A stretch of 47,469 nt of DNA, taken from a virus. Its lineage: Duplodnaviria > Heunggongvirae > Uroviricota > Caudoviricetes. Below the pieces are notes generated by a model. The model was not told the DNA's origin. It searched no databases and was given only the letters and a program-made list of their open reading frames with translations. The stretch lies in IMG/VR virus record IMGVR_UViG_2877274432_000010; one strand, 5' to 3'. This document shows, one piece after another, positions 7,651-20,124 of this stretch. Made by a program: the position numbers and the translations under genes. Each line of letters begins with the position of its first letter. The first letter of the stretch is position 1.

Positions 7651-7987
7651 AAGGAAACAAAACAGAAACAGCAATTGCCGTTACCTGTTGTTACCATGGC
7701 AAGTAAACGTATCTCAGGCGAGCGCATTGCGCCGTTCTGACGCAGATAAATTAGCCTGGATAGAAGGTGCTGGCAATAAAAAATAGCGTTTTCTTATCGG
7801 TATCGGTAAGATTGCTGCGGGTGCTTGAGGCTGTCTGCCTCGGGCATGCCACTGTAAGGCAGACAGAGAAAAGCCCCAGTTAACATTACGCGTCCTGCAA
7901 GACGCTTAACATTAATCTGAGGCCCAATCTATGTCTCACAAATGTAGGTTAGCCTCTTACGTGCCGAAAGGCAAGGAGAAGCAGGCT

Positions 7988-8143
7988 ATGAAGCAGCAAA
8001 AGGCGATGTTAATCGCCCTGATCGTCATCTGTTTAACCGTCATAGTGACGGCACTGGTAACGAGGAAAGACCTCTGCGAGGTACGAATCCGAACCGGCCA
8101 GACGGAGGTCGCTGTCTTCACAGCTTACGAACCTGAGGAGTAA
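7988..8143 (+). CDS. hok: Hok/Gef-family type I toxin
   Basis: MKQQKAMLIALIVICLTVIVTALVTRKDLCEVRIRTGQTEVAVFTAYEPEE matches the Hok family (HokD/RelF-like); structured leader with long hairpins upstream. Confidence 0.85.
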   Translation: MKQQKAMLIALIVICLTVIVTALVTRKDLCEVRIRTGQTEVAVFTAYEPEE

Positions 8144-8631: not shown

Positions 8632-8648
8632 TAGGTAATGACTCCAAC

Positions 8649-9152
8649 TTACTGATAGTGTTTTATGTTCAGATAATGCCCGATGACCTTGTCATGCAGC
8701 TCCACCGATTTTGAGAACGACAGTGACTTCCGTCCCAGCCTTGCCAGATGTTGTCTCAGATTCAGATTATGTCGCTCAATGCGCTGAGTGTAACGCTTGC
8801 TGATAACGTGCAGCTTTCCCTTCAGGCGTGATTCATACAGCGGCCAGCCATCCGTCATCCATACCACGACCTCAAAGGCCGACAGCAGGCTCAGAAGACG
8901 CTCCAGTGTGGCCAGAGTGCGTTCACCGAAGACGTGCGCCACAACCGTCCTCCGTATCCTGTCATACGCGTAAAACAGCCAGCGCTGACGTGATTTAGCA
9001 CCGACGTAGCCCCAATGTTCGTCCATTTCAGCGCAGACAATCACATCACTGCCCGGTTGTATGCGCGAGGTTACCGACTGCGGCCTGAGTTTTTTAAGTG
9101 ACGTAAAACCGTGTTGAGGCCAACGCCCATAATGCGTGCACTGGCGCGACAT
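8649..9152 (-). CDS. insB: IS1 InsB
   Basis: 167-aa ORF. Confidence 0.85.
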
Positions 9153-9346
9153 CCGACGCCATTCATGGCCATATCAATGATTTTCTGGTGCGTACCGGGC
9201 TGAGAGGCGGTGTAAGTGAACTGTAGTTGCCATGTTTTACGGCAATGAGAGCAGAGATAGCGCTGATGTCCGGCAGTGCTTTTGCCGTTACGCACCACGC
9301 CTTCAGTAGCGGAGCAGGAAGGACATCTGATGGAAATGGAAGCCAC
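9071..9346 (-). CDS. insA: IS1 InsA
   Basis: 91-aa [25 protein letters not shown]... Confidence 0.85.
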
Positions 9347-9479
9347 GCAAGCACCTTAAAATCACCATCATACACTAAATCAGTAAGTTGGCAGCATTAC
9401 CCTGTTAGTATTGGCATTAATTCTGGTATACTACATAACGGGCTGAACACCCATTCTACTGCGCCAGCGGAGAACTACG

Positions 9480-10079: not shown

Positions 10080-10369
10080 TGGTGGATTTACGTAAAGCGG
10101 CGCGGGGGCAGATGTGCACCGTCAGAATTCCTGGCTACTGCAATCACAATCCCGAAACTTCTGTGCTGGCGCATTACAGGCTGGCGGGGACGTGCGGAAC
10201 AGCGACAAAACCACACGATATGCAGGCAGCGATTGCCTGTAGCTCATGCCACGATTTAATCGACGGGCGGGTAAAAACCAGCGATTACACCAAAGAAGAA
10301 TTACGCCTGATGCATGCAGAAGGTGTTTTTCGCACACAAGAAATCTGGAGAAAGGAAGGTTATTTATGA
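10079..10369 (+). CDS. YbcO-like protein (DUF1364, putative nuclease)
   Basis: MVDLRKAARGQMCTVRIPGYCNHNPETSVLAHYRLAG...CSSCHDLIDGR closely resembles DLP12 YbcO. Confidence 0.65.
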   Translation: MVDLRKAARGQMCTVRIPGYCNHNPETSVLAHYRLAGTCGTATKPHDMQAAIACSSCHDLIDGRVKTSDYTKEELRLMHAEGVFRTQEIWRKEGYL

Positions 10370-10920
10370 TTTACCCAACAAATACAGGCAAAAGCGGGGA
10401 ACACCTTCGTCTCACCACGCTGGAAAGTGTCTGGATTCAGGGAAAACTGCGCATGTGGGGGCGCTGGTCGTATATTGGCGGCGGTAAGACGGGAAATATG
10501 TTTAACCAGTTGCTGGCATCCAAAAAATTGACGAAAACAGCCGTCAATGAAGCCCTGCGCAGGATGAAAAAAGCGGGAATAGAGAAACCTGAGCTGGAAG
10601 CGTTTTTGCGAGAGATGATCAATGGCAAGCAAAAGACCTAGCTGGCGCATTGTACTGATGCAGAGGCGTTATGTATTGATAGAGTCATAAGTGAGGTGCT
10701 GGCAGAGCATCCTGGATTGATTAGTGTCCTCCGGCAACGGTATGAAGGGCGGGGGATGACTAAGCGTAAAATGGCTGAATTGCTGAATGACGCACACCCT
10801 GAGTGGTGTTTCCGGACGTGCTGCAGTCGGGTAGATGTATGGCTAAATCTTGCTGAATATATGCTCTATCTACCGATGCGTGATGCATTCTCTTCCGGGG
10901 ATCTAAAAACCGTTTGTTGA
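10366..10920 (+). pseudogene. Antitermination protein Q-like, interrupted by an in-frame amber codon
   Basis: ORF 10366-10641 ends at TAG 10639-10641 and the same frame continues without further stops to 10920; motifs LRMWGRW and CFRTCCS resemble phage-82/QuuD-type Q; position immediately upstream of a late-promoter-like region. Confidence 0.45.
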
Positions 10921-10946
10921 CTCAATCTGTTATCCGGGGCTATATT
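10917..10946 (+). promoter_or_regulatory. Candidate late promoter (pR'-like)
   Basis: TTGACT - 18 bp - TATATT directly downstream of the Q-like gene, followed by hairpins. Confidence 0.45.
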
Positions 10947-11009
10947 CCTCACGCGCCAGCAAAATCTGGCGTCGGGATTGGCGTCCCGGATGTTTACGGA
11001 GCGATATGA

Positions 11010-11029
11010 GACGCGCCCGCGTCTTTTTT
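11010..11029 (+). terminator. tR'-like rho-independent terminator
   Basis: GACGCG-CCC-GCGTC hairpin followed by TTTTTT about 65 bp downstream of the candidate promoter. Confidence 0.55.
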
Positions 11030-11243
11030 CATATCGTTTGCACAGTCACATTCGCGATTTATGGCGGGCTGTGTGGGGGAGCCGAAAGGCTCGCCGGTTT
11101 CCGTACCCGGTTACGCCAACCCTGCACAGTTCGCCACCAGTTCGATTGGCGTCGTCGGTGGCGATAATTTCCAAATGTACGGAGTTATCGTTATGACCAC
11201 TCAAATCTCTGTTGAAACTCTCTCCCCGATCACCCATAACCAG

Positions 11244-12490
11244 TGAGGTAGCCTGAGTTTAACGGACACTCCTTCCTGAAATAGAATGGCATCAGAAGGA
11301 GCTAATAATGAGCAGAAAAACCCAACGTTACTCTAAAGAGTTCAAAGCCGAAGCTGTCAGAACGGTTCTTGAAAATCAACTTTCGATCAGTGAAGGCGCT
11401 TCCCGATTATCCCTTCCTGAAGGCACTTTAGGACAATGGGTTACCGCCGCCAGAAAAGGGCTCGGTACTCCTGGTTCCCGCACGGTGGCTGAACTGGAAT
11501 CTGAAATTCTGCAACTGCGTAAGGCGTTAAATGAAGCTCGCCTTGAGCGAGATATATTAAATTGCACAGGAGTCGCTGAAAAATACGCGTTAATCGAACA
11601 ATGGCGACAACAATTTCCCATTGAAGCGATGTGTCAGGTATTTGGTGTATCCAGGAGCGGTTATTACAACTGGGTACAGCATGAACCCTCAGACAGAAAA
11701 CAAAGTGATGAGCGGCTAAAACTGGAGATTAAGGTGGCACATATCCGCACTCGCGAAACATATGGAACCCGGCGGCTCCAGACGGAGCTGGCAGAGAATG
11801 GCATCATCGTTGGTCGTGACCGACTGGCACGTCTTCGTAAGGAGCTGAGGCTACGCTGTAAGCAGAAACGCAAGTTCAGAGCGACTACGAACCCGAACCA
11901 CAATCTGCCAGTTGCGCCAAATCTGCTGAACCAGACGTTCGCTCCTACAGCACCAAATCAGGTCTGGGTGGCGGACCTGACGTATGTTGCCACACAGGAG
12001 GGATGGTTGTACCTCGCTGGCATCAAAGATGTTTATACGTGTGAAATTGTCGGCTACGCCATGGGAGAGCGCATGACAAAAGAGCTGACAGGTAAAGCCC
12101 TGTTTATGGCGCTCAGGAGCCAGCGCCCACCTGCCGGGCTAATCCACCACTCTGATCGAGGTTCACAGTACTGCGCATACGATTACCGGGTCATACAGGA
12201 GCAGTCTGGTCTGAAAACATCAATGTCGCGTAAAGGTAACTGTTACGACAACGCTCCGATGGAAAGCTTCTGGGGAACGCTGAAAAATGAGAGCCTGAGC
12301 CACTATCGTTTTAATAACCGGGATGAAGCCATCTCAGTAATACGGGAATACATTGAGATTTTCTACAATCGTCAGCGTCGTCACTCTCGTCTGGGGAATA
12401 TCTCCCCGGCAGCCTTCAGGGAAAAATATCATCAGATGGCTGCTTAAAAAAAGAACAAATGGTAGTGTCCGCTATTGCCAGTACACCTCA
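11244..12490 (+). mobile_element. IS600, copy 2, 1247 bp, with 17-bp internal deletion
   Basis: Both IS600 ends present; flanked by direct repeat CAG; 17 bp shorter than the other copies at the orfA/orfB junction. Confidence 0.9.
11308..12447 (+). CDS. IS600 OrfAB transposase, genomically fused single ORF
   Basis: 379-aa continuous ORF; the A-rich frameshift segment is replaced by ...ATATATTAAATTGCACAGG... Confidence 0.8.
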   Translation: MSRKTQRYSKEFKAEAVRTVLENQLSISEGASRLSLPEGTLGQWVTAARKGLGTPGSRTVAELESEILQLRKALNEARLERDILNCTGVAEKYALIEQWRQQFPIEAMCQVFGVSRSGYYNWVQHEPSDRKQSDERLKLEIKVAHIRTRETYGTRRLQTELAENGIIVGRDRLARLRKELRLRCKQKRKFRATTNPNHNLPVAPNLLNQTFAPTAPNQVWVADLTYVATQEGWLYLAGIKDVYTCEIVGYAMGERMTKELTGKALFMALRSQRPPAGLIHHSDRGSQYCAYDYRVIQEQSGLKTSMSRKGNCYDNAPMESFWGTLKNESLSHYRFNNRDEAISVIREYIEIFYNRQRRHSRLGNISPAAFREKYHQMAA

Positions 12491-13096
12491 CAGATTCCTG
12501 TTATTACCACCGAACTTTTGGCGCAGCTTTACGGCACTGAGCCGGTGCGTATTCGCCAGAATCATCATGAGAACAAAGTACGCTTCGTTGAAGGGAAACA
12601 CTTTTTCAAAGTTGTTGGTAATGACCTTAAAGAATTGCGGGTCGCTTTAAACTACTCACAAAATCCAGTTTCACCCAAAGCCCGCTCCCTCATCCTCTGG
12701 ACAGAACGAGGCGCAGCACGCCACGGCAAAATGCTCGAAACCGATCAGGCGTGGGATGTGTTCGAAAAACTGGAAGACTGCTATTTCAGTCAAAGGGATC
12801 CGTCAACGCCAGTTTCATGCCAGAAAAGTTACGACACGCGAGTTCTCTGTTATCAGAGAGGCGGTGTCACTGTTTCCACAATTCAGTTACGGGATGATGA
12901 TATTGTTATTTCCCTTGAGTCATGGCTGGAACTGGCGAGAGCCAATGGTTGGTTTGTTGTTCGCAGAGATAAACTGGTGGAAAGGTTGATGCAGCTTTAA
13001 AAAAGTTCTTGCATTTTTGCACATAAACTGCTTCAATTACGGTAAGCTTCGCAAAGCTGTATCGCGAGGCGAATAGCAGACATGGACACTTGAAAG

Positions 13097-13120
13097 AACC
13101 CGCTTTATGCGGGTTTTTTT
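13097..13120 (+). terminator. Rho-independent terminator
   Basis: ACCCGC-TTTAT-GCGGGT followed by T-run. Confidence 0.65.
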
Positions 13121-13208
13121 GTGCCTGAAAAATGGCACAGGGCGTTAAACGCGCTGGTGGTCAGATGAGTTTGCAGATGTGATGACATATGGTTATTATT
13201 CTGCCTCC

Positions 13209-13285
13209 GGCCCTTTAGCTCAGTTGGTCAGAGCGAGCGACTCATAATCGCCAGGTCGCTGGTTCAAGTCCAGCAAGGGCCACCA
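13209..13285 (+). tRNA. tRNA with CAU anticodon (Met or Ile2/lysidine type)
   Basis: Cloverleaf with 7-bp acceptor stem GGCCCTT/AAGGGCC, anticodon loop CTCATAA, T-loop GGTTCAAGTCC, 3' CCA; resembles E. coli ileX but diverged. Confidence 0.75.
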
Positions 13286-13286
13286 A

Positions 13287-13363
13287 CCACCACTAGCTCA
13301 TCCGGATAGAGCATCAACCTTCTAAGTTGACGGTGCGAGGTTCGAGTCCTCGGTGGTGGGCCA
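13287..13363 (+). tRNA. tRNA-Arg (UCU)
   Basis: Acceptor CCACCAC/GTGGTGG, anticodon stem TCAAC/GTTGA, loop CTTCTAA, T-arm CGAGG-TTCGAGT-CCTCG, CCA end. Confidence 0.8.
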
Positions 13364-13365
13364 GC

Positions 13366-13441
<76 letters not shown>

Positions 13442-13444
13442 TAT

Positions 13445-13519
<75 letters not shown>

Positions 13520-13633
13520 TGACCTTTCTTAAAGTACTCCAACCTACTGAATCCTAAGGGATACGGCTTTAAGCCTCCTTGCAGAGTTACTTACTGTAAC
13601 CCACTGTGTAACCCTCTCAGGGCATGCAGACAT

Positions 13634-15238
13634 ATGATTCAGCTATCCAGTAGTCACAAACTTCCAGCAGTCTACTATCTCTACCAGCGTAACGGCGTCT
13701 ACTACTTCCGTCTTAGGGTCAGACAATCAAACAATGATAGAATGACCTCAATATCATTACGGACCAAGGATAGACGCACCGCTATGGCTTACTCAAGGCA
13801 CATAAAGGCAGCACTCAAGGCAATACACGCAGACAGACCCAACGCTACCTATGAGGAAATGAGGGAACACCTTAAGGACATCGCTGAGTGTGAACTGTCT
13901 ATGGGCCGTTCAGATCTCTTTGAGCCTGACATGAGGGATATCTACCGGGACCAATACGGAGAACTTGGTGAGAGCCTTACCGATGCTCTGGCTAGTGAGC
14001 CGCTAAGCATTGACCAGCATCGTTACATCAATGAGGCCCTGAAGGTGCTAAAAGCCTGTATGAGGCGTATCGAAGCGGGAGACAGTCAGCCTCTGATAGA
14101 TTACGTCGATCTTTTTAATGATATTGATAGGCAAGATAACCAAGCAGACTCTGTGTCCCTATCTGTTAATGCTCCAGAAGTAAAACCAGAAGTTACGCCT
14201 AGCATTACCATAGCGAGCCTCTTTGAACAATACGAAGCGGAGAACTATCAGAACTGGAAGCCTGCAACCTTAAGGGAAAACAAGGCGTCACACGCTGCGT
14301 TAATCGAAATATTCGACCATCTGGGTCTCAATGCAGACGCTAACAGGGCTGACATGCTTAGGGTCCGTGATGTGCTCCAGCAGTTACCTAGGAACCGTAA
14401 GCAGCGCTTCAAGGATGTCCCACTTGCTGACCTGTTGAGCCGTGAAGATAAGACAGATTGTCTGGATGTCGTTACCATCAACAACAAGTATCTTATTAAG
14501 ATGGCTGCTGTCTTTAGGTGGGCTGTGCGCAATGACTTGATTAAAAAGAACATGACTGAGGGTCTGGAGCTTAAAGTCCCTCAGCGTAAAGCCTCAGGGG
14601 CCCGTAACGCCTTCTCTACGGAGCAGGTGGGGCAACTACTGGTCGCAGCTAAGGCATACTCTCAGAAGACCTCTGGTAAGCCGTATCATTATTATGTTAC
14701 CGCCTTGGCTGCTATCACTGGGGCGAGACTCAATGAAATAGCCCAACTACAGGTCAAAGACGTCAGGACCACTGAGGCGGGAACCGTTTATATTCATATC
14801 AATGAAGACGATAGTAGTCTACCCGGTAAGAGCATCAAGAACGCTCATAGTGACCGCTGTGTGCCTCTGGTCGATGGGGCCTATGGTTTTATATTGGCTG
14901 ACTTTATGGCGCTTGTAGAGACCCGTAGAGGCGCTGACGGTGATGACGCTATGGTGTTCGATGGTCTGCGTCTCATGAAGAACGGTTACGGTGAGCAGGT
15001 GAGTAAATGGTTTAATCGGACGTTGTTGCCTAAAGTCCTCGTAGACCGTAGCGGCTTAGCGTTTCACTCGTTTAGACATACAGTTGCGGCCCAGTTAAAA
15101 CAACATGGGGTCGAGTTGGCGTATGCACAGGCGATCATGGGGCATAGTTCAGGGTCTATTACGTACGACCGTTATGCTAAAGAGGTCGAGGTTGATAGGC
15201 TGGTCAATGTGATGGCTGATGTTTATAAGGAGACCTAG
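13634..15238 (+). CDS. Tyrosine site-specific recombinase (integrase), 534 aa
   Basis: C-terminal catalytic region with HSFRHTVAAQL...HSSGSITYDRYA pattern (R, H-x-x-R, Y); starts 114 bp after the tRNA-Gly 3' end in the same orientation. Confidence 0.8.
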   Translation: MIQLSSSHKLPAVYYLYQRNGVYYFRLRVRQSNNDRMTSISLRTKDRRTAMAYSRHIKAALKAIHADRPNATYEEMREHLKDIAECELSMGRSDLFEPDMRDIYRDQYGELGESLTDALASEPLSIDQHRYINEALKVLKACMRRIEAGDSQPLIDYVDLFNDIDRQDNQADSVSLSVNAPEVKPEVTPSITIASLFEQYEAENYQNWKPATLRENKASHAALIEIFDHLGLNADANRADMLRVRDVLQQLPRNRKQRFKDVPLADLLSREDKTDCLDVVTINNKYLIKMAAVFRWAVRNDLIKKNMTEGLELKVPQRKASGARNAFSTEQVGQLLVAAKAYSQKTSGKPYHYYVTALAAITGARLNEIAQLQVKDVRTTEAGTVYIHINEDDSSLPGKSIKNAHSDRCVPLVDGAYGFILADFMALVETRRGADGDDAMVFDGLRLMKNGYGEQVSKWFNRTLLPKVLVDRSGLAFHSFRHTVAAQLKQHGVELAYAQAIMGHSSGSITYDRYAKEVEVDRLVNVMADVYKET

Positions 15239-15326
15239 AGGAGACCATAGTCTAGGATGACACTTACTACAGACCTGTGTGGTCATGTTTTTGACTCATA
15301 GTTTTCTCTACTTGTCAAGTGATAAT

Positions 15327-15349
15327 TAATACGACTCACTATAGGGAGA
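15327..15349 (+). promoter_or_regulatory. T7 RNA polymerase promoter consensus (copy 1)
   Basis: Exact TAATACGACTCACTATAGGGAGA; predicted +1 G at 15344, transcription rightward. Confidence 0.7.
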
Positions 15350-15447
15350 AGGGACACAAAAAGTTTTCTCTTCTAGGATGACACTTACTACAGACCTGTG
15401 CGGTCATGTTTTTGACTCATAGTTTTCTCTGCTTGTCAAGGGGTAAT

Positions 15448-15470
15448 TAATACGACTCACTATAGGGAGA
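15448..15470 (+). promoter_or_regulatory. T7 RNA polymerase promoter consensus (copy 2)
   Basis: Exact TAATACGACTCACTATAGGGAGA. Confidence 0.7.
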
Positions 15471-15567
15471 AGGGACACAAAAAGTTTTCTCTTCTAGGAT
15501 GACACTTACTACAGACCTGTGTGGTCATGTTTTTGACTCATGGTTTTCTCTACTTGTCAAGGATAAT

Positions 15568-15590
15568 TAATACGACTCACTATAGGGAGA
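15568..15590 (+). promoter_or_regulatory. T7 RNA polymerase promoter consensus (copy 3)
   Basis: Exact TAATACGACTCACTATAGGGAGA. Confidence 0.7.
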
Positions 15591-15620
15591 AGGGACACAA
15601 AAAGTTTTCTCTTCTAGGAC

Positions 15621-15987
15621 AACTAACCGTAACTTATCGCATCCTTTCAGGGGCGGGATGACCAATTACAGACACCAAGCGTTCTACTTAAAGTGAATGC
15701 TTCCTGTGTGCTCTGGGTCAGTCGATAAGTGAATAGCAATAAGACACAATCATCTTAATTATGGTCTCTAGTCCCTACAGGGGCTTAACTTAAAGTTAAC
15801 TTAAAGACACAATTAAAGATTAACTTATAGTATTACTTAAAGTTAACTTAAAGACACAATTAGAGATTAACTTTAAGTATTAAATAAAAGATTTAATTAA
15901 AGACCAATTAAAGATTAACTCTAAGGGAATACCTTAAGGGGTGATGATATTTATAATAATCAATCACCAAACCTATAGGTCTTCTCT
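15621..15987 (+). repeat. AT-rich region with short tandem repeats (TTAACTTAAAG / AAAGATTAACT modules)
   Basis: Two ~47-bp tandem units at about 15797-15890 and further degenerate copies; no ORF; region ends at the IS911 insertion. Confidence 0.75.
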
Positions 15988-16059
15988 TGAAGTGGCACAC
16001 TGAATTTGGCCACCTGAACAGAGGTGATATGCTCACCTCAGAACAACACAGGTGCTCCA

Positions 16060-19175: not shown

Positions 19176-20124
19176 AAAAAAAGCAACAGCGTATTTTGCA
19201 CAGGAGTCGCTGAAAAATACGCGTTAATCGAACAATGGCGACAACAATTTCCCATTGAAGCGATGTGTCAGGTATTTGGTGTATCCAGGAGCGGTTATTA
19301 CAACTGGGTACAGCATGAACCCTCAGACAGAAAACAAAGTGATGAGCGGCTAAAACCGGAGATTAAGGTGGCACATATCCGCACTCGCGAAACATATGGA
19401 ACCCGGCGGCTCCAGACGGAGCTGGCAGAGAATGGCATCATCGTTGGTCGTGACCGACTGGCACGTCTTCGTAAGGAGCTGAGGCTACGCTGTAAGCAGA
19501 AACGCAAGTTCAGAGCGACTACGAACCCGAACCACAATCTGCCAGTTGCGCCAAATCTGCTGAACCAGACGTTCGCTCCTACAGCACCAAATCAGGTCTG
19601 GGTGGCGGACCTGACGTATGTTGCCACACAGGAGGGATGGTTGTACCTCGCTGGCATCAAAGATGTTTATACGTGTGAAATTGTCGGCTACGCCATGGGA
19701 GAGCGCATGACAAAAGAGCTGACAGGTAAAGCCCTGTTTATGGCGCTCAGGAGCCAGCGCCCACCTGCCGGGCTAATCCACCACTCTGATCGAGGTTCAC
19801 AGTACTGCGCATACGATTACCGGGTCATACAGGAGCAGTCTGGTCTGAAAACATCAATGTCGCGTAAAGGTAACTGTTACGACAACGCTCCGATGGAAAG
19901 CTTCTGGGGAACGCTGAAAAATGAGAGCCTGAGCCACTATCGTTTTAATAACCGGGATGAAGCCATCTCAGTAATACGGGAATACATTGAGATTTTCTAC
20001 AATCGTCAGCGTCGTCACTCTCGTCTGGGGAATATCTCCCCGGCAGCCTTCAGGGAAAAATATCATCAGATGACTGCTTAAAAAAAGAACAAATGGTAGT
20101 GTCCGCTATTGCCAGTACACCTCA
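19176..20124 (+). mobile_element. IS600, 5'-truncated partial copy
   Basis: Begins inside the A-rich frameshift region and runs to the normal right end ...GCCAGTACACCTCA; lacks orfA. Confidence 0.85.
19263..20081 (+). CDS. IS600 OrfB
   Basis: 272-aa ORF with copy-specific substitutions. Confidence 0.85.
   Translation: MCQVFGVSRSGYYNWVQHEPSDRKQSDERLKPEIKVAHIRTRETYGTRRLQTELAENGIIVGRDRLARLRKELRLRCKQKRKFRATTNPNHNLPVAPNLLNQTFAPTAPNQVWVADLTYVATQEGWLYLAGIKDVYTCEIVGYAMGERMTKELTGKALFMALRSQRPPAGLIHHSDRGSQYCAYDYRVIQEQSGLKTSMSRKGNCYDNAPMESFWGTLKNESLSHYRFNNRDEAISVIREYIEIFYNRQRRHSRLGNISPAAFREKYHQMTA

Follow-up and report, generated by a model that had tools for sequence, protein, structure and literature searches.

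A close described counterpart of the locus analyzed here is the antQ-isrK-orf45-anrP-isrJ region of Gifsy-1 (Hershko-Shalev et al., 2016, PMC4825925), in which the activity of the promoter PisrK was shown experimentally, the IsrK RNA is short and terminated with partial read-through, and orf45 and anrP are translationally coupled. The IsrK promoter was also described as regulated by antitermination (Sy et al., 2020, PMC7547250), which is opposite to the assignment reached below. Other points of reference are the immI locus of phages P1 and P7 (a1 b1 - c4 - a2 b2 - icd - ant), the lambda 6S RNA and the StxS RNA of Stx phages (Sy et al., 2020), and the late-gene antiterminator Q21 (PF06530; PDB 6P18, 6P19 and 6P1A), whose B1-B2 loop touches the DNA minor groove and a second Q protomer.

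We examined a 47,469-nucleotide stretch of a Caudoviricetes virus record (IMGVR_UViG_2877274432_000010, hereafter the window), the relevant features of which are listed in Table 1. Our main reading, to which we assign a probability of roughly 0.7, is that this region represents the junction between Q and the late operon of a lambdoid prophage in advanced decay, with a portable cassette lying between Q and its own late promoter. In the intact ancestor (e.g., the prophage of E. coli VL40), DUF1133, a divergent Q21 relative, would be expressed from the end of the nin region and would engage RNA polymerase at its own late promoter; the modified polymerase would pass the terminator, cross four tRNA genes and enter the holin, lysozyme, Rz and terminase genes. 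An autonomous immI-like cassette (PisrK, IsrK, C4-like RNA, orf45-like leader and ORF6N antirepressor) sits between Q and this candidate promoter. In the window, the change of TGG to TAG at codon 92 leaves a 91-residue stump, the antirepressor is split by an IS3-family element, and everything beyond tRNA-Gly has been lost, with a tRNA-Gly island integrase and IS copies coming next; the surviving small RNAs and tRNAs may still be expressed.

Table 1. Features between Q and the island integrase, in coordinates of the window.
Feature	Coordinates	Strand	Basis and details
DUF1133/Q21-like late-gene antiterminator pseudogene	10366..10920	+	184 codons; PF06576, PF06530, PHROG 753, Q21 profile match
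In-frame amber codon, Trp92 TGG to TAG (G>A at 10640)	10639..10641	+	Alignment to relatives
PisrK promoter, TTGACT-N18-TATATT	10917..10946	+	-35 at 10917-10922, overlapping the Q stop codon; -10 at 10941-10946
IsrK-like sRNA with a1/b1 target sites	10953..11029	+	Rfam RF01394 and RF03163; terminator scan; fold
C4-like antisense RNA (P1/P7 immI type; STnc1160 in Salmonella)	11057..11141	+	Rfam RF01695
orf45-like leader ORF, in frame with the ant start	11061..11192	+	ORF 11061..11246
ORF6N antirepressor, 5' fragment (17 codons)	11193..11243	+	ATG 11193; alignment to intact relatives
IS3-family element, IS600-like, 1247 bp	11244..12490	+	CAG target duplication, 11241-11243/12491-12493
ORF6N antirepressor, 3' fragment	12494..13000	+	Pfam ORF6N, E = 5.6e-18; collinear with relatives
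Candidate pR'	13009..13048	+	-35 TTGCAT 13009-13014; extended -10 TG 13029-13030; -10 TTCAAT 13032-13037
Candidate tR' intrinsic terminator	13092..13120	+	GC stem 13099-13103/13109-13113, then seven Ts
Phage-borne cluster of four tRNAs	13209..13519	+	CAU (tRNA-Ile in relatives' annotation), Arg-UCU, Thr-UGU, Gly-UCC
Tyrosine integrase, 534 aa, tRNA-Gly-associated island	13634..15238	+	Pfam Phage_integrase

The Q gene is one gene inactivated by one nonsense change. Its frame, which starts at an ATG overlapping (as ATGA) the stop codon of YbcO/DUF1364, the preceding gene, and ends with the TGA at 10918-10920, is interrupted once, and comparison with intact relatives, which have TGG at codon 92, shows that a single G>A accounts for the stop. 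When the amber codon was entered as X, the product matched Pfam DUF1133 (PF06576) over positions 1-175 of 176 (355.7 bits, cutoff 23.1 bits; E = 4e-107). Two separate genes are ruled out, as the family HMM spans the stop and the genes of relatives are uninterrupted; the preliminary description, which had reported a lone in-frame TAG within a single Q-like frame open to 10920, was correct on this point, coordinates included. Across the gene, the nearest relative (E. coli VL40) differs at 8 nucleotides, position 10640 among them. The exact Q allele is already on record from Shigella flexneri, its 91-residue stump being in public data (“DUF1133 family protein, partial [Shigella flexneri]”, 18 contigs). 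Sequencing error at the TAG is ruled out, since the same allele occurs on many independent contigs. The inactivation is ordinary prophage decay; the label “domesticated” given earlier implies selection for host benefit, for which we see no support.

Several comparisons connect DUF1133 with the Q21 family. The window product matches PHROG 753 (“anti-termination protein Q-like”, E = 1.4e-80) as well as the Q21/Q933W family PF06530 (28.2 bits, cutoff 26 bits), to which the similarity of single DUF1133 sequences is marginal (27-33 bits), and a Q21-like protein is present among the HMMER matches of DUF1133. Against the PDB, Q21 is the top match both of the single window sequence (E = 0.013) and of the DUF1133 family profile, which aligns with phage 21 Q (PDB 6P18, chain 6p18_P) at E = 5e-10 in two collinear segments (13-39/5-31 and 95-179/57-153, DUF1133/Q21). 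The gene order in intact relatives is DUF1367, DUF1364, DUF1133, optional ant and tRNAs, holin, lysin, Rz and terminase, so that DUF1133 is the last early gene ahead of the lysis genes, at the end of the nin region, and the intact relatives that we examined showed no further gene annotated as Q. On the grounds of distant homology and genomic position, DUF1133 proteins may act as antiterminators. The amber codon removes the whole segment aligning with the DNA-binding half of Q21, and because the 91-residue stump lacks everything aligned to Q21 residues 57-153 (helix-turn[loop]helix plus C-terminal RNA polymerase contacts), no antitermination would be expected from it. Even intact DUF1133 has a gap of ~13 residues where the B1-B2 loop of Q21 lies (residues about 105-121), with the flanking helices aligned, and with this DNA-contacting loop apparently missing, DNA recognition would have to differ from that of Q21. 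A search of 1.84 billion proteins yielded just 76 representatives of this narrow family; the window protein is not covered by any NCBIfam model, a literature search on DUF1133 returned no papers and no experiment on any member, and an AlphaFold2 model from a 14-sequence alignment (pLDDT 54, pTM 0.39) was too poor for a fold search.

Directly behind Q, the preliminary description had placed a promoter and hairpin resembling pR'-qut-tR'. These elements do lie where it put them, but their identity is that of PisrK and the IsrK terminator. The TTGACT-N18-TATATT pattern alone proves nothing, since such sites are no more common in the region than expected by chance (4 found vs. 3.7 expected); support for PisrK comes from the Rfam isrK match, which begins 7 nt past the -10. 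This match (RF01394) reaches 75.6 bits (gathering score 50), the c4-a1b1 match (RF03163, positions 10940-10992) 52.2 bits (gathering score 46.7), and the C4 match (RF01695) 77.6 bits (gathering score 45), with a predicted C4 fold of -45.9 kcal/mol (MFE, z = -4.6). In the IsrK terminator, a T-run follows the hairpin at 11008-11025. The window has the cassette order a1b1, C4, leader ORF, ant (from the Rfam matches and the ORF6N antirepressor), and the orf45-like leader of pPE4 has one extra nucleotide relative to that of the window. Possible pairing of IsrK with C4 is indicated only by their Rfam classes and by an exact complement of 7 nt (IsrK 26-32, C4 57-63); the RNAduplex energy of the two was no better than that of shuffled sequences (56 of 300 shuffles as good).

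The antirepressor gene follows Q and is interrupted by an IS, as had been noted previously. The rejoined protein matches the PHROG 2379 anti-repressor (E = 1.2e-92), and the IS is a shorter version of a 1264-bp element of which the window has four further copies, one of them partial. Its ends were placed from alignments with relatives and with the remaining window copies; a repeat search found no inverted repeats at the chosen threshold. The earlier view that ant and the tRNAs stand in place of lysis genes is not supported: the lysis genes have indeed been lost, but the succession of Q, ant and tRNAs is normal in intact relatives (Q, the ant-bearing cassette and tRNAs, with holin, lysozyme, Rz and terminase behind them), and the loss begins after 13519. 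The absence of lysis genes is explained by a break in collinearity with intact prophages at this position, the 3' end of tRNA-Gly, behind which the island integrase follows; in E. coli, the same integrase DNA sits directly behind a chromosomal tRNA-Gly. We saw no holin or endolysin gene in the listed ORFs that follow the tRNAs, some of which were scanned with Pfam.

A likelier candidate for pR' and tR' than 10917-11029 lies 2 kb further on, at 13009-13120. This element abuts the DUF1133 stop in 666R9, O157 SS52, O157 F8952, O139 W13-16 and EC_T6, where the cassette is absent, and follows ant in CFS3292, pPE4, FDAARGOS_944 and VL40, where the cassette is present. It was detected in 7 of 50,697 phage records (6 DUF1133 phages, the only ones in this collection, and SerU-LTIIb) and at 2696 places in E. 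coli genomes, vs. 2854 for the DUF1133 gene. The promoter-like sequence, a TAnGCT -10-like element (TAAGCT at 13043-13048 in the window, a possible sigma-dependent pause element) and the terminator are conserved and tied to the DUF1133 gene. We infer that 13009-13048 functions as a promoter; its proposed -10 has no A at position 2, where one is usual, and escaped a consensus promoter scan, and no Q-binding element could be defined nearby. RNAalifold covariation of the candidate leader was uninformative, the terminator alleles being out of register, and the terminator was judged from per-allele hairpins: the window version folds with z = -3.7, and relatives keep a hairpin and U-run in differing sequence versions. 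A permissive Rfam search of 12980-13215 gave sub-threshold matches only (the best isrK-like, 21.5 bits; gathering score 50). Gifsy-1 offers a parallel, as its isrJ, located after anrP, is homologous to DNA abutting the Q genes of other phages.

The position of 10917-11029 immediately behind Q, with a -35 reaching into the stop codon, would also suit a Q-dependent pR' with qut and tR', in which Q overcomes the IsrK terminator and the cassette forms the first part of the late transcript. A short terminated transcript is indeed predicted immediately after Q (Rfam isrK match plus terminator), the partial read-through of IsrK in Gifsy-1 and the antitermination-regulated promoter of Sy et al. would fit, and the terminator at 13092-13120 could then be a second one on the same Q-modified transcript. 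The distribution of the cassette argues against this, and we consider it unlikely. The isrK/c4-a1b1/C4 trio is common to Gifsy-1, CFS3292 and the Stx2a phage EH0505, and both Gifsy-1 and the nin region of EH0505 share the promoter, beginning with its -35, together with the spacer and leader, yet the cassette lies behind a Q82-type Q (PF06323, a family unrelated to DUF1133) in the former and about 3 kb upstream of Q (PF06530) in the latter. A query with Q plus cassette recovered 170 phage records, mostly isolated Stx phages plus Gifsy-1, most aligning to the cassette part only, whereas 6 carry DUF1133; conversely, most DUF1133 genes lack the cassette and are directly followed by an element of the 13009-13120 type. 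Promoter and putative loading site are thus not specific to the adjacent Q family, and by these sequence comparisons 10917-11029 is the promoter and terminator of a portable isrK/C4/antirepressor cassette, not a Q-specific pR'-qut-tR'.

The marginal single-sequence scores, the missing loop and the narrow, unstudied nature of the family could alternatively mean that DUF1133 is some other DNA-binding regulator, resembling sigma region 4, at the Q position. This appears more doubtful still, given a collinear profile match to Q21 that covers both ends, the place of DUF1133 in the nin-lysis slot with no other annotated Q in the intact relatives examined, and the conserved promoter-like sequence, -10-like element and terminator tied to it. 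Least probable of all, and very improbable in our view, is that the Q gene of the window is still alive, either through decoding of the TAG (host amber suppressor or read-through) or through a functional stump. It is true that the 92 codons 3' of the TAG are still open, and that the identical allele also occurs in a second, Rac-like context retaining holin and endolysin, and so has survived a recombination or conversion event. However, the downstream half of the gene is identical to that of intact relatives; further decay has had no time to set in, and the open frame therefore carries no weight. Relatives have TGG at codon 92, which is accordingly not a conserved recoding site, and the anticodons of the four window tRNAs (CAT, TCT, TGT and TCC) rule out a suppressor tRNA in the adjacent cluster, since none reads amber.

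Taken by itself, this finding is routine and adds one more inactivated regulator from a Shigella prophage remnant, whose stump was already public as a “partial” DUF1133 protein. It is useful mostly as a correction, in that a promoter and terminator directly behind Q are not necessarily pR'-tR', as a portable IsrK/C4/antirepressor cassette can intervene, and relatives without the cassette can reveal the real late-promoter leader by comparison. A wider reading, which we offer tentatively and at somewhat less than even odds, is that DUF1133 is an unstudied Q21-family branch without the DNA-contacting loop, acting on its own extended -10 late promoter and leader (13009-13120), and that the isrK-C4-antirepressor cassette is a mobile module repeatedly landing exactly between Q and its pR'. 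This would include Gifsy-1, where IsrJ and not IsrK would be the pR' leader RNA, contrary to the existing descriptions of IsrK, and IsrJ, a Salmonella sRNA, would need a new account of its origin. More speculatively, the Q-amber allele, which is found in two prophage contexts (lysis genes being intact in one of them), may have been retained for its silencing of lysis. If the DUF1133-Q21 link and the dedicated promoter hold in experiments, a family carried by about 1960 of 5426 complete E. coli genomes would gain a function; in some genomes DUF1133 lies upstream of toxin cargo (e.g., ADP-ribosyltransferase and AB5 subunit genes in O139 W13-16).

Among the known systems, Q21 shares with DUF1133 the N-terminal W..WG.W helix, the C-terminal C-x-D ... 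TCR ... L.A..ML motifs and the genomic slot ahead of the lysis genes. In contrast to Q21, DUF1133 scores only about 28 bits against the PF06530 HMM, is about 20 residues longer in its N-terminal half, lacks ~13 residues of the B1-B2 loop and is linked to a promoter of other sequence, and the window copy is a nonsense pseudogene. Like lambda 6S RNA and StxS, the candidate transcript at 13044-13120 would be a promoter-proximal terminated RNA (~77 nt) just ahead of phage tRNAs and late genes, although the window leader matches no sequence family. With P1/P7 immI the window shares c4-a1b1 and C4, which precede a small leader ORF and the antirepressor coupled to it, but its context is lambdoid, its a1/b1 segment forms a separate terminated sRNA (IsrK), and its antirepressor is of the ORF6N type. 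The likeness to Gifsy-1 extends through Q, PisrK, IsrK, the C4-like RNA (STnc1160) inside the orf45 leader, the antirepressor, a short terminated RNA and tRNA, with isrK and C4 Rfam matches common to both and DNA homology beginning at the -35. The two differ in Q, which in Gifsy-1 is of the unrelated Q82 family (PF06323), and in the RNA after the antirepressor, which is IsrJ there and an undescribed leader in the window, where orf45 and ant share a reading frame, an IS interrupts ant and Q carries the amber codon.

The Q-like reading frame begins within an ATGA, where its start codon and the stop of the preceding YbcO/DUF1364 gene overlap; the frame is broken at one place only, the TAG at 10639-10641 (codon 92), and stays open beyond it, as the preliminary description had stated. 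With this stop masked, the product matched Pfam DUF1133 (PF06576) across positions 1-175 of 176 (E = 4e-107), and also PF06530, Phage_antitermQ (28.2 bits against a cutoff of 26). As the DUF1133 match runs across the stop and covers both halves, this is one interrupted gene, and the alternative of two separate genes raised at the outset is ruled out. Codon 92 aligns with TGG in intact relatives, the nearest of which (the E. coli VL40 prophage) differs in the Q gene by only 8 nt, including 10640 G>A. Public collections contain the exact 91-residue product on 18 contigs, under the name “DUF1133 family protein, partial [Shigella flexneri]”, which excludes a read error and identifies the TAG as a real allele. 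Judged by their anticodons, none of the four tRNAs in the window's cluster reads amber.

Coordinates of the features of the Q-antirepressor-tRNA region in the window
Feature	Position	Strand	Basis or remark
DUF1133 (Q) gene, single 184-codon frame	10366-10920, stop TGA 10918-10920	+	reading frame
PisrK promoter, TTGACT-N18-TATATT	10917-10946	+	pattern scan
c4-a1b1	10940-10992	+	Rfam, above gathering score
isrK	10953-11029	+	Rfam, above gathering score; begins 7 nt past -10
Hairpin and T-run (IsrK terminator)	11008-11025	+	terminator scan
C4 antisense RNA	11057-11141	+	Rfam, above gathering score
ORF6N antirepressor gene (ant), split	ATG 11193	+	IS insertion
IS in ant	11244-12490	+	CAG target duplication
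Candidate -35, TTGCAT	13009-13014	+	alignment with relatives
Candidate extended -10, TG	13029-13030	+	alignment with relatives
Candidate -10, TTCAAT	13032-13037	+	without usual A at position 2
-10-like TAAGCT	13043-13048	+	alignment with relatives
Candidate terminator	13092-13120	+	z = -3.7
Four tRNAs	13209-13519	+	tRNA scan

A second context for the identical TAG allele is Rac-like (DUF1971, DUF1367, YbcO, Q(TAG), the candidate late promoter pR', a 189-aa ORF, holin, endolysin), where the 3' end of the Q gene is of the type seen in the relative 666R9. This context, which lacks the isrK cassette, was seen in two Logan SRA assemblies (L014 2280-4782 and L015 1031-3197) and in E. coli GPEC206-621 (L019), with the first ~383 nt of the allele 100% identical to the window. 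Being common to two mosaics, the allele has passed through a recombination or gene-conversion event, and its position upstream of an intact lysis cassette is compatible with selection for a lysis-null Q.

The PHROGs label of the product is “anti-termination protein Q-like” (E = 1.4e-80), and the two top matches of the single protein among PDB sequences were chains of phage 21 Q (E = 0.013). When 14 DUF1133 proteins were combined into a profile that included no Q21-like sequence, the profile matched Q21 (E = 5e-10) in two collinear stretches (13-39 with Q21 5-31, and 95-179 with Q21 57-153). DUF1133 is a narrow, enterobacterial family: HMMER, run exhaustively over 1.84 billion representatives, returned only 76 relatives, one of them Q21-like, and our literature search found no paper mentioning the name. 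The AlphaFold model was too poor to be informative (pLDDT 54). Q21 reads DNA by a helix-turn[loop]helix, with a B1-B2 loop at residues about 105-121, and touches RNA polymerase with C-terminal residues (bioRxiv 10.1101/651190). Since the corresponding parts of DUF1133 all lie past the amber codon, the 91-residue stump is expected to be unable to bind DNA or to antiterminate. DUF1133 differs from Q21 by a gap of about 13 residues at the B1-B2 loop and, if a Q, would have to read DNA somewhat differently.

Where such a Q would have acted is a separate question. The preliminary description took the promoter and hairpin/T-run immediately 3' of the gene for a pR'-qut-tR'-like element. Both sites exist, and promoter-like patterns are no commoner in this region than in shuffled sequence, so that the pattern alone is weak evidence. 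The interval also holds three RNA elements of existing Rfam families (isrK, c4-a1b1 and C4), and the trio at 10940-11141 is, judging from sequence, the isrK locus as described in Gifsy-1. There, a 77-nt IsrK is made from PisrK, some transcription passes the terminator into orf45-anrP, a processed ~80-nt RNA (STnc1160) comes from the orf45 region, and IsrK in trans opens the leader ORF to translation and thereby also the antirepressor, whose translation is coupled to it (PMC4825925). The same three families stand behind an unrelated Q82-family Q (PF06323) in Gifsy-1, and in the Stx2a phage EH0505 they are part of the nin region and precede a PF06530 Q by about 3 kb, with DNA homology among the three cassettes starting exactly at the -35 TTGAC. 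A Q-plus-cassette query matched 170 phage records, most of which (chiefly Stx phages) aligned only to the cassette part, and only 6 carried the DUF1133 gene; the isrK/C4/antirepressor cassette is thus portable. A promoter that accompanies Q proteins of unrelated families, and that also occurs at a distance from Q, offers no Q-specific loading site, and we therefore read 10917-11029 as PisrK and the IsrK terminator rather than as pR'-tR'.

The orf45-like leader ORF (region 11061-11195) shares its frame with the start codon of ant both in the window and in the relative CFS3292, whereas phage pPE4 has one extra base in this region and Gifsy-1 a stop-start AUGA overlap; the coupling arrangement therefore varies between alleles. 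A second copy (isrK 39382-39458, C4 39270-39357, with an antirepressor gene, at 38877-39458 on the minus strand) has a divergent promoter region and is cut on its 3' side by an IS at 38624; inspection of the ORF list revealed no Q-like ORF upstream of it.

The late promoter is more likely at 13009-13048 than at 10917-10946. In 666R9, whose DUF1133 Q lacks the cassette, an element directly 3' of the gene comprises TTGATT, a 17-nt spacer ending in TGC, TTCAAT, TCCGG, TATGCT, TCGCAAAGCTGTATCGCGAGGCGAA and a GC hairpin with U-run. In CFS3292 and the window this element comes after the stop codon of the antirepressor gene, and in four more E. coli loci (O157 SS52, O157 F8952, O139 W13-16 and EC_T6) it overlaps the DUF1133 3' end. 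Comparison of eleven sequences shows the -35, TGc-TTCAAT and TAnGCT to be conserved; the terminator versions differ, yet every one keeps its hairpin and U-run. Among 50,697 phage records the element was found in seven, namely six DUF1133 phages and the partial SerU-LTIIb record (upstream of tRNAs and holins), and in complete E. coli genomes at 2696 places vs. 2854 for the DUF1133 gene. This co-occurrence supports a link between the two, and we propose that DUF1133 is a relative of Q21 with a dedicated promoter. Promoter, -10-like element at the transcript start and terminator are arranged as in lambda pR', from which we infer promoter activity, pausing and Q binding. No Rfam family covering the candidate leader was found. 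A further promoter-like site just upstream of the first tRNA (TTTGCA-N18-TATTAT, 13170-13199), of a kind present at chance number and hence weak evidence, could drive the tRNA cluster independently of Q.

The tRNA cluster and the IS-split ORF6N gene were described correctly, but not as standing in place of lysis genes. Intact prophages of VL40 and FDAARGOS_944 have the order DUF1367, DUF1364, DUF1133, ORF6N, tRNA-Ile/Arg/Thr/Gly, holin, lysozyme, Rz, terminase, so that an antirepressor gene and tRNAs after Q are normal. The window is collinear with both up to 13519, the last base of tRNA-Gly, broken only by an IS1-like insertion (8634-9400) and the IS in ant. The DNA from 13520 on carries the integrase (534 aa, 13634-15238) of an island that E. 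coli has directly behind a chromosomal tRNA-Gly, next to actS (L013, compared with window 13520-15990); IS copies come next, and then, at 21069, a tail-fibre gene. Loss of the late operon therefore took place downstream of the tRNA cluster. The integrase abutting the prophage tRNA-Gly suggests integration into the phage tRNA gene, and the loss likely came about by this integration and then IS-mediated deletion, an order of events that we infer; a search of the window gave no second copy of the tRNA 3' end.

One IS3-family element occurs five times in the 47 kb (437-1700, 11244-12490, 19196-20124, 33741-35007, 45717-46980): three full-length copies of 1264-1267 bp, one partial, and the 1247-bp copy in ant, whose deletion fuses two transposase frames into one 379-aa ORF. 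The nin region holds a hok/sok-type toxin-antisense pair (7819-8143; Rfam sok/CssrC, 118 bits), also present in the intact relatives. A region of cargo and remnants (21069-43751) contains the tail-fibre gene (to 22337), RecE-like early genes of a second prophage and, on the minus strand, four sitABCD-like ORFs (23112-26561; two match ABC-3 permease and ZnuA-type binding-protein families), a group II intron with reverse transcriptase (29262-30875) and an IpaH-type NEL E3 ligase (42036-43751); the Shigella sRNA CssrB follows at 43880-44062.

In the ancestor, Q would have been a product of the early-right transcript, loading at the 13009-13048 promoter and taking polymerase past the 13092-13120 terminator, over the tRNAs and on to the genes for lysis and morphogenesis; the IsrK/C4 cassette would have gated antirepressor synthesis independently. 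In the window this switch is disabled by three independent lesions (Q amber, IS in ant and late-gene loss). The earlier view of a dead, deleted prophage remnant thus stands without its promoter assignment and its reading of ant as a replacement for lysis genes: what remains is an inactivated Q in a prophage that has decayed. Compared with intact relatives, the window shows no change in the small-RNA genes, both promoters, the terminators or the four tRNAs (VL40 matches 13001-13125, candidate promoter through terminator, at 99.2%), and the small RNAs and tRNAs may still be expressed.

Two other loci invite comparison. In W13-16 (L011 1893-3111), a scabin-related ADP-ribosyltransferase and an AB5 toxin binding subunit lie directly 3' of DUF1133 and the promoter-terminator element, as toxin cargo at the position where Stx phages have stx. 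In Gifsy-1, the isrJ gene and promoter (L003 6835-6960) lie just 3' of the antirepressor gene anrP. In Klebsiella, Enterobacter and E. coli PPompW phages, DNA homologous to the isrJ region overlaps annotated Q genes at their 3' end. This homology suggests that Gifsy-1 is likewise arranged as Q, cassette and pR' leader, so that IsrJ, and not IsrK, looks like the pR' leader RNA of a Q82-type Q, and a cassette between Q and pR' may be a recurrent arrangement.
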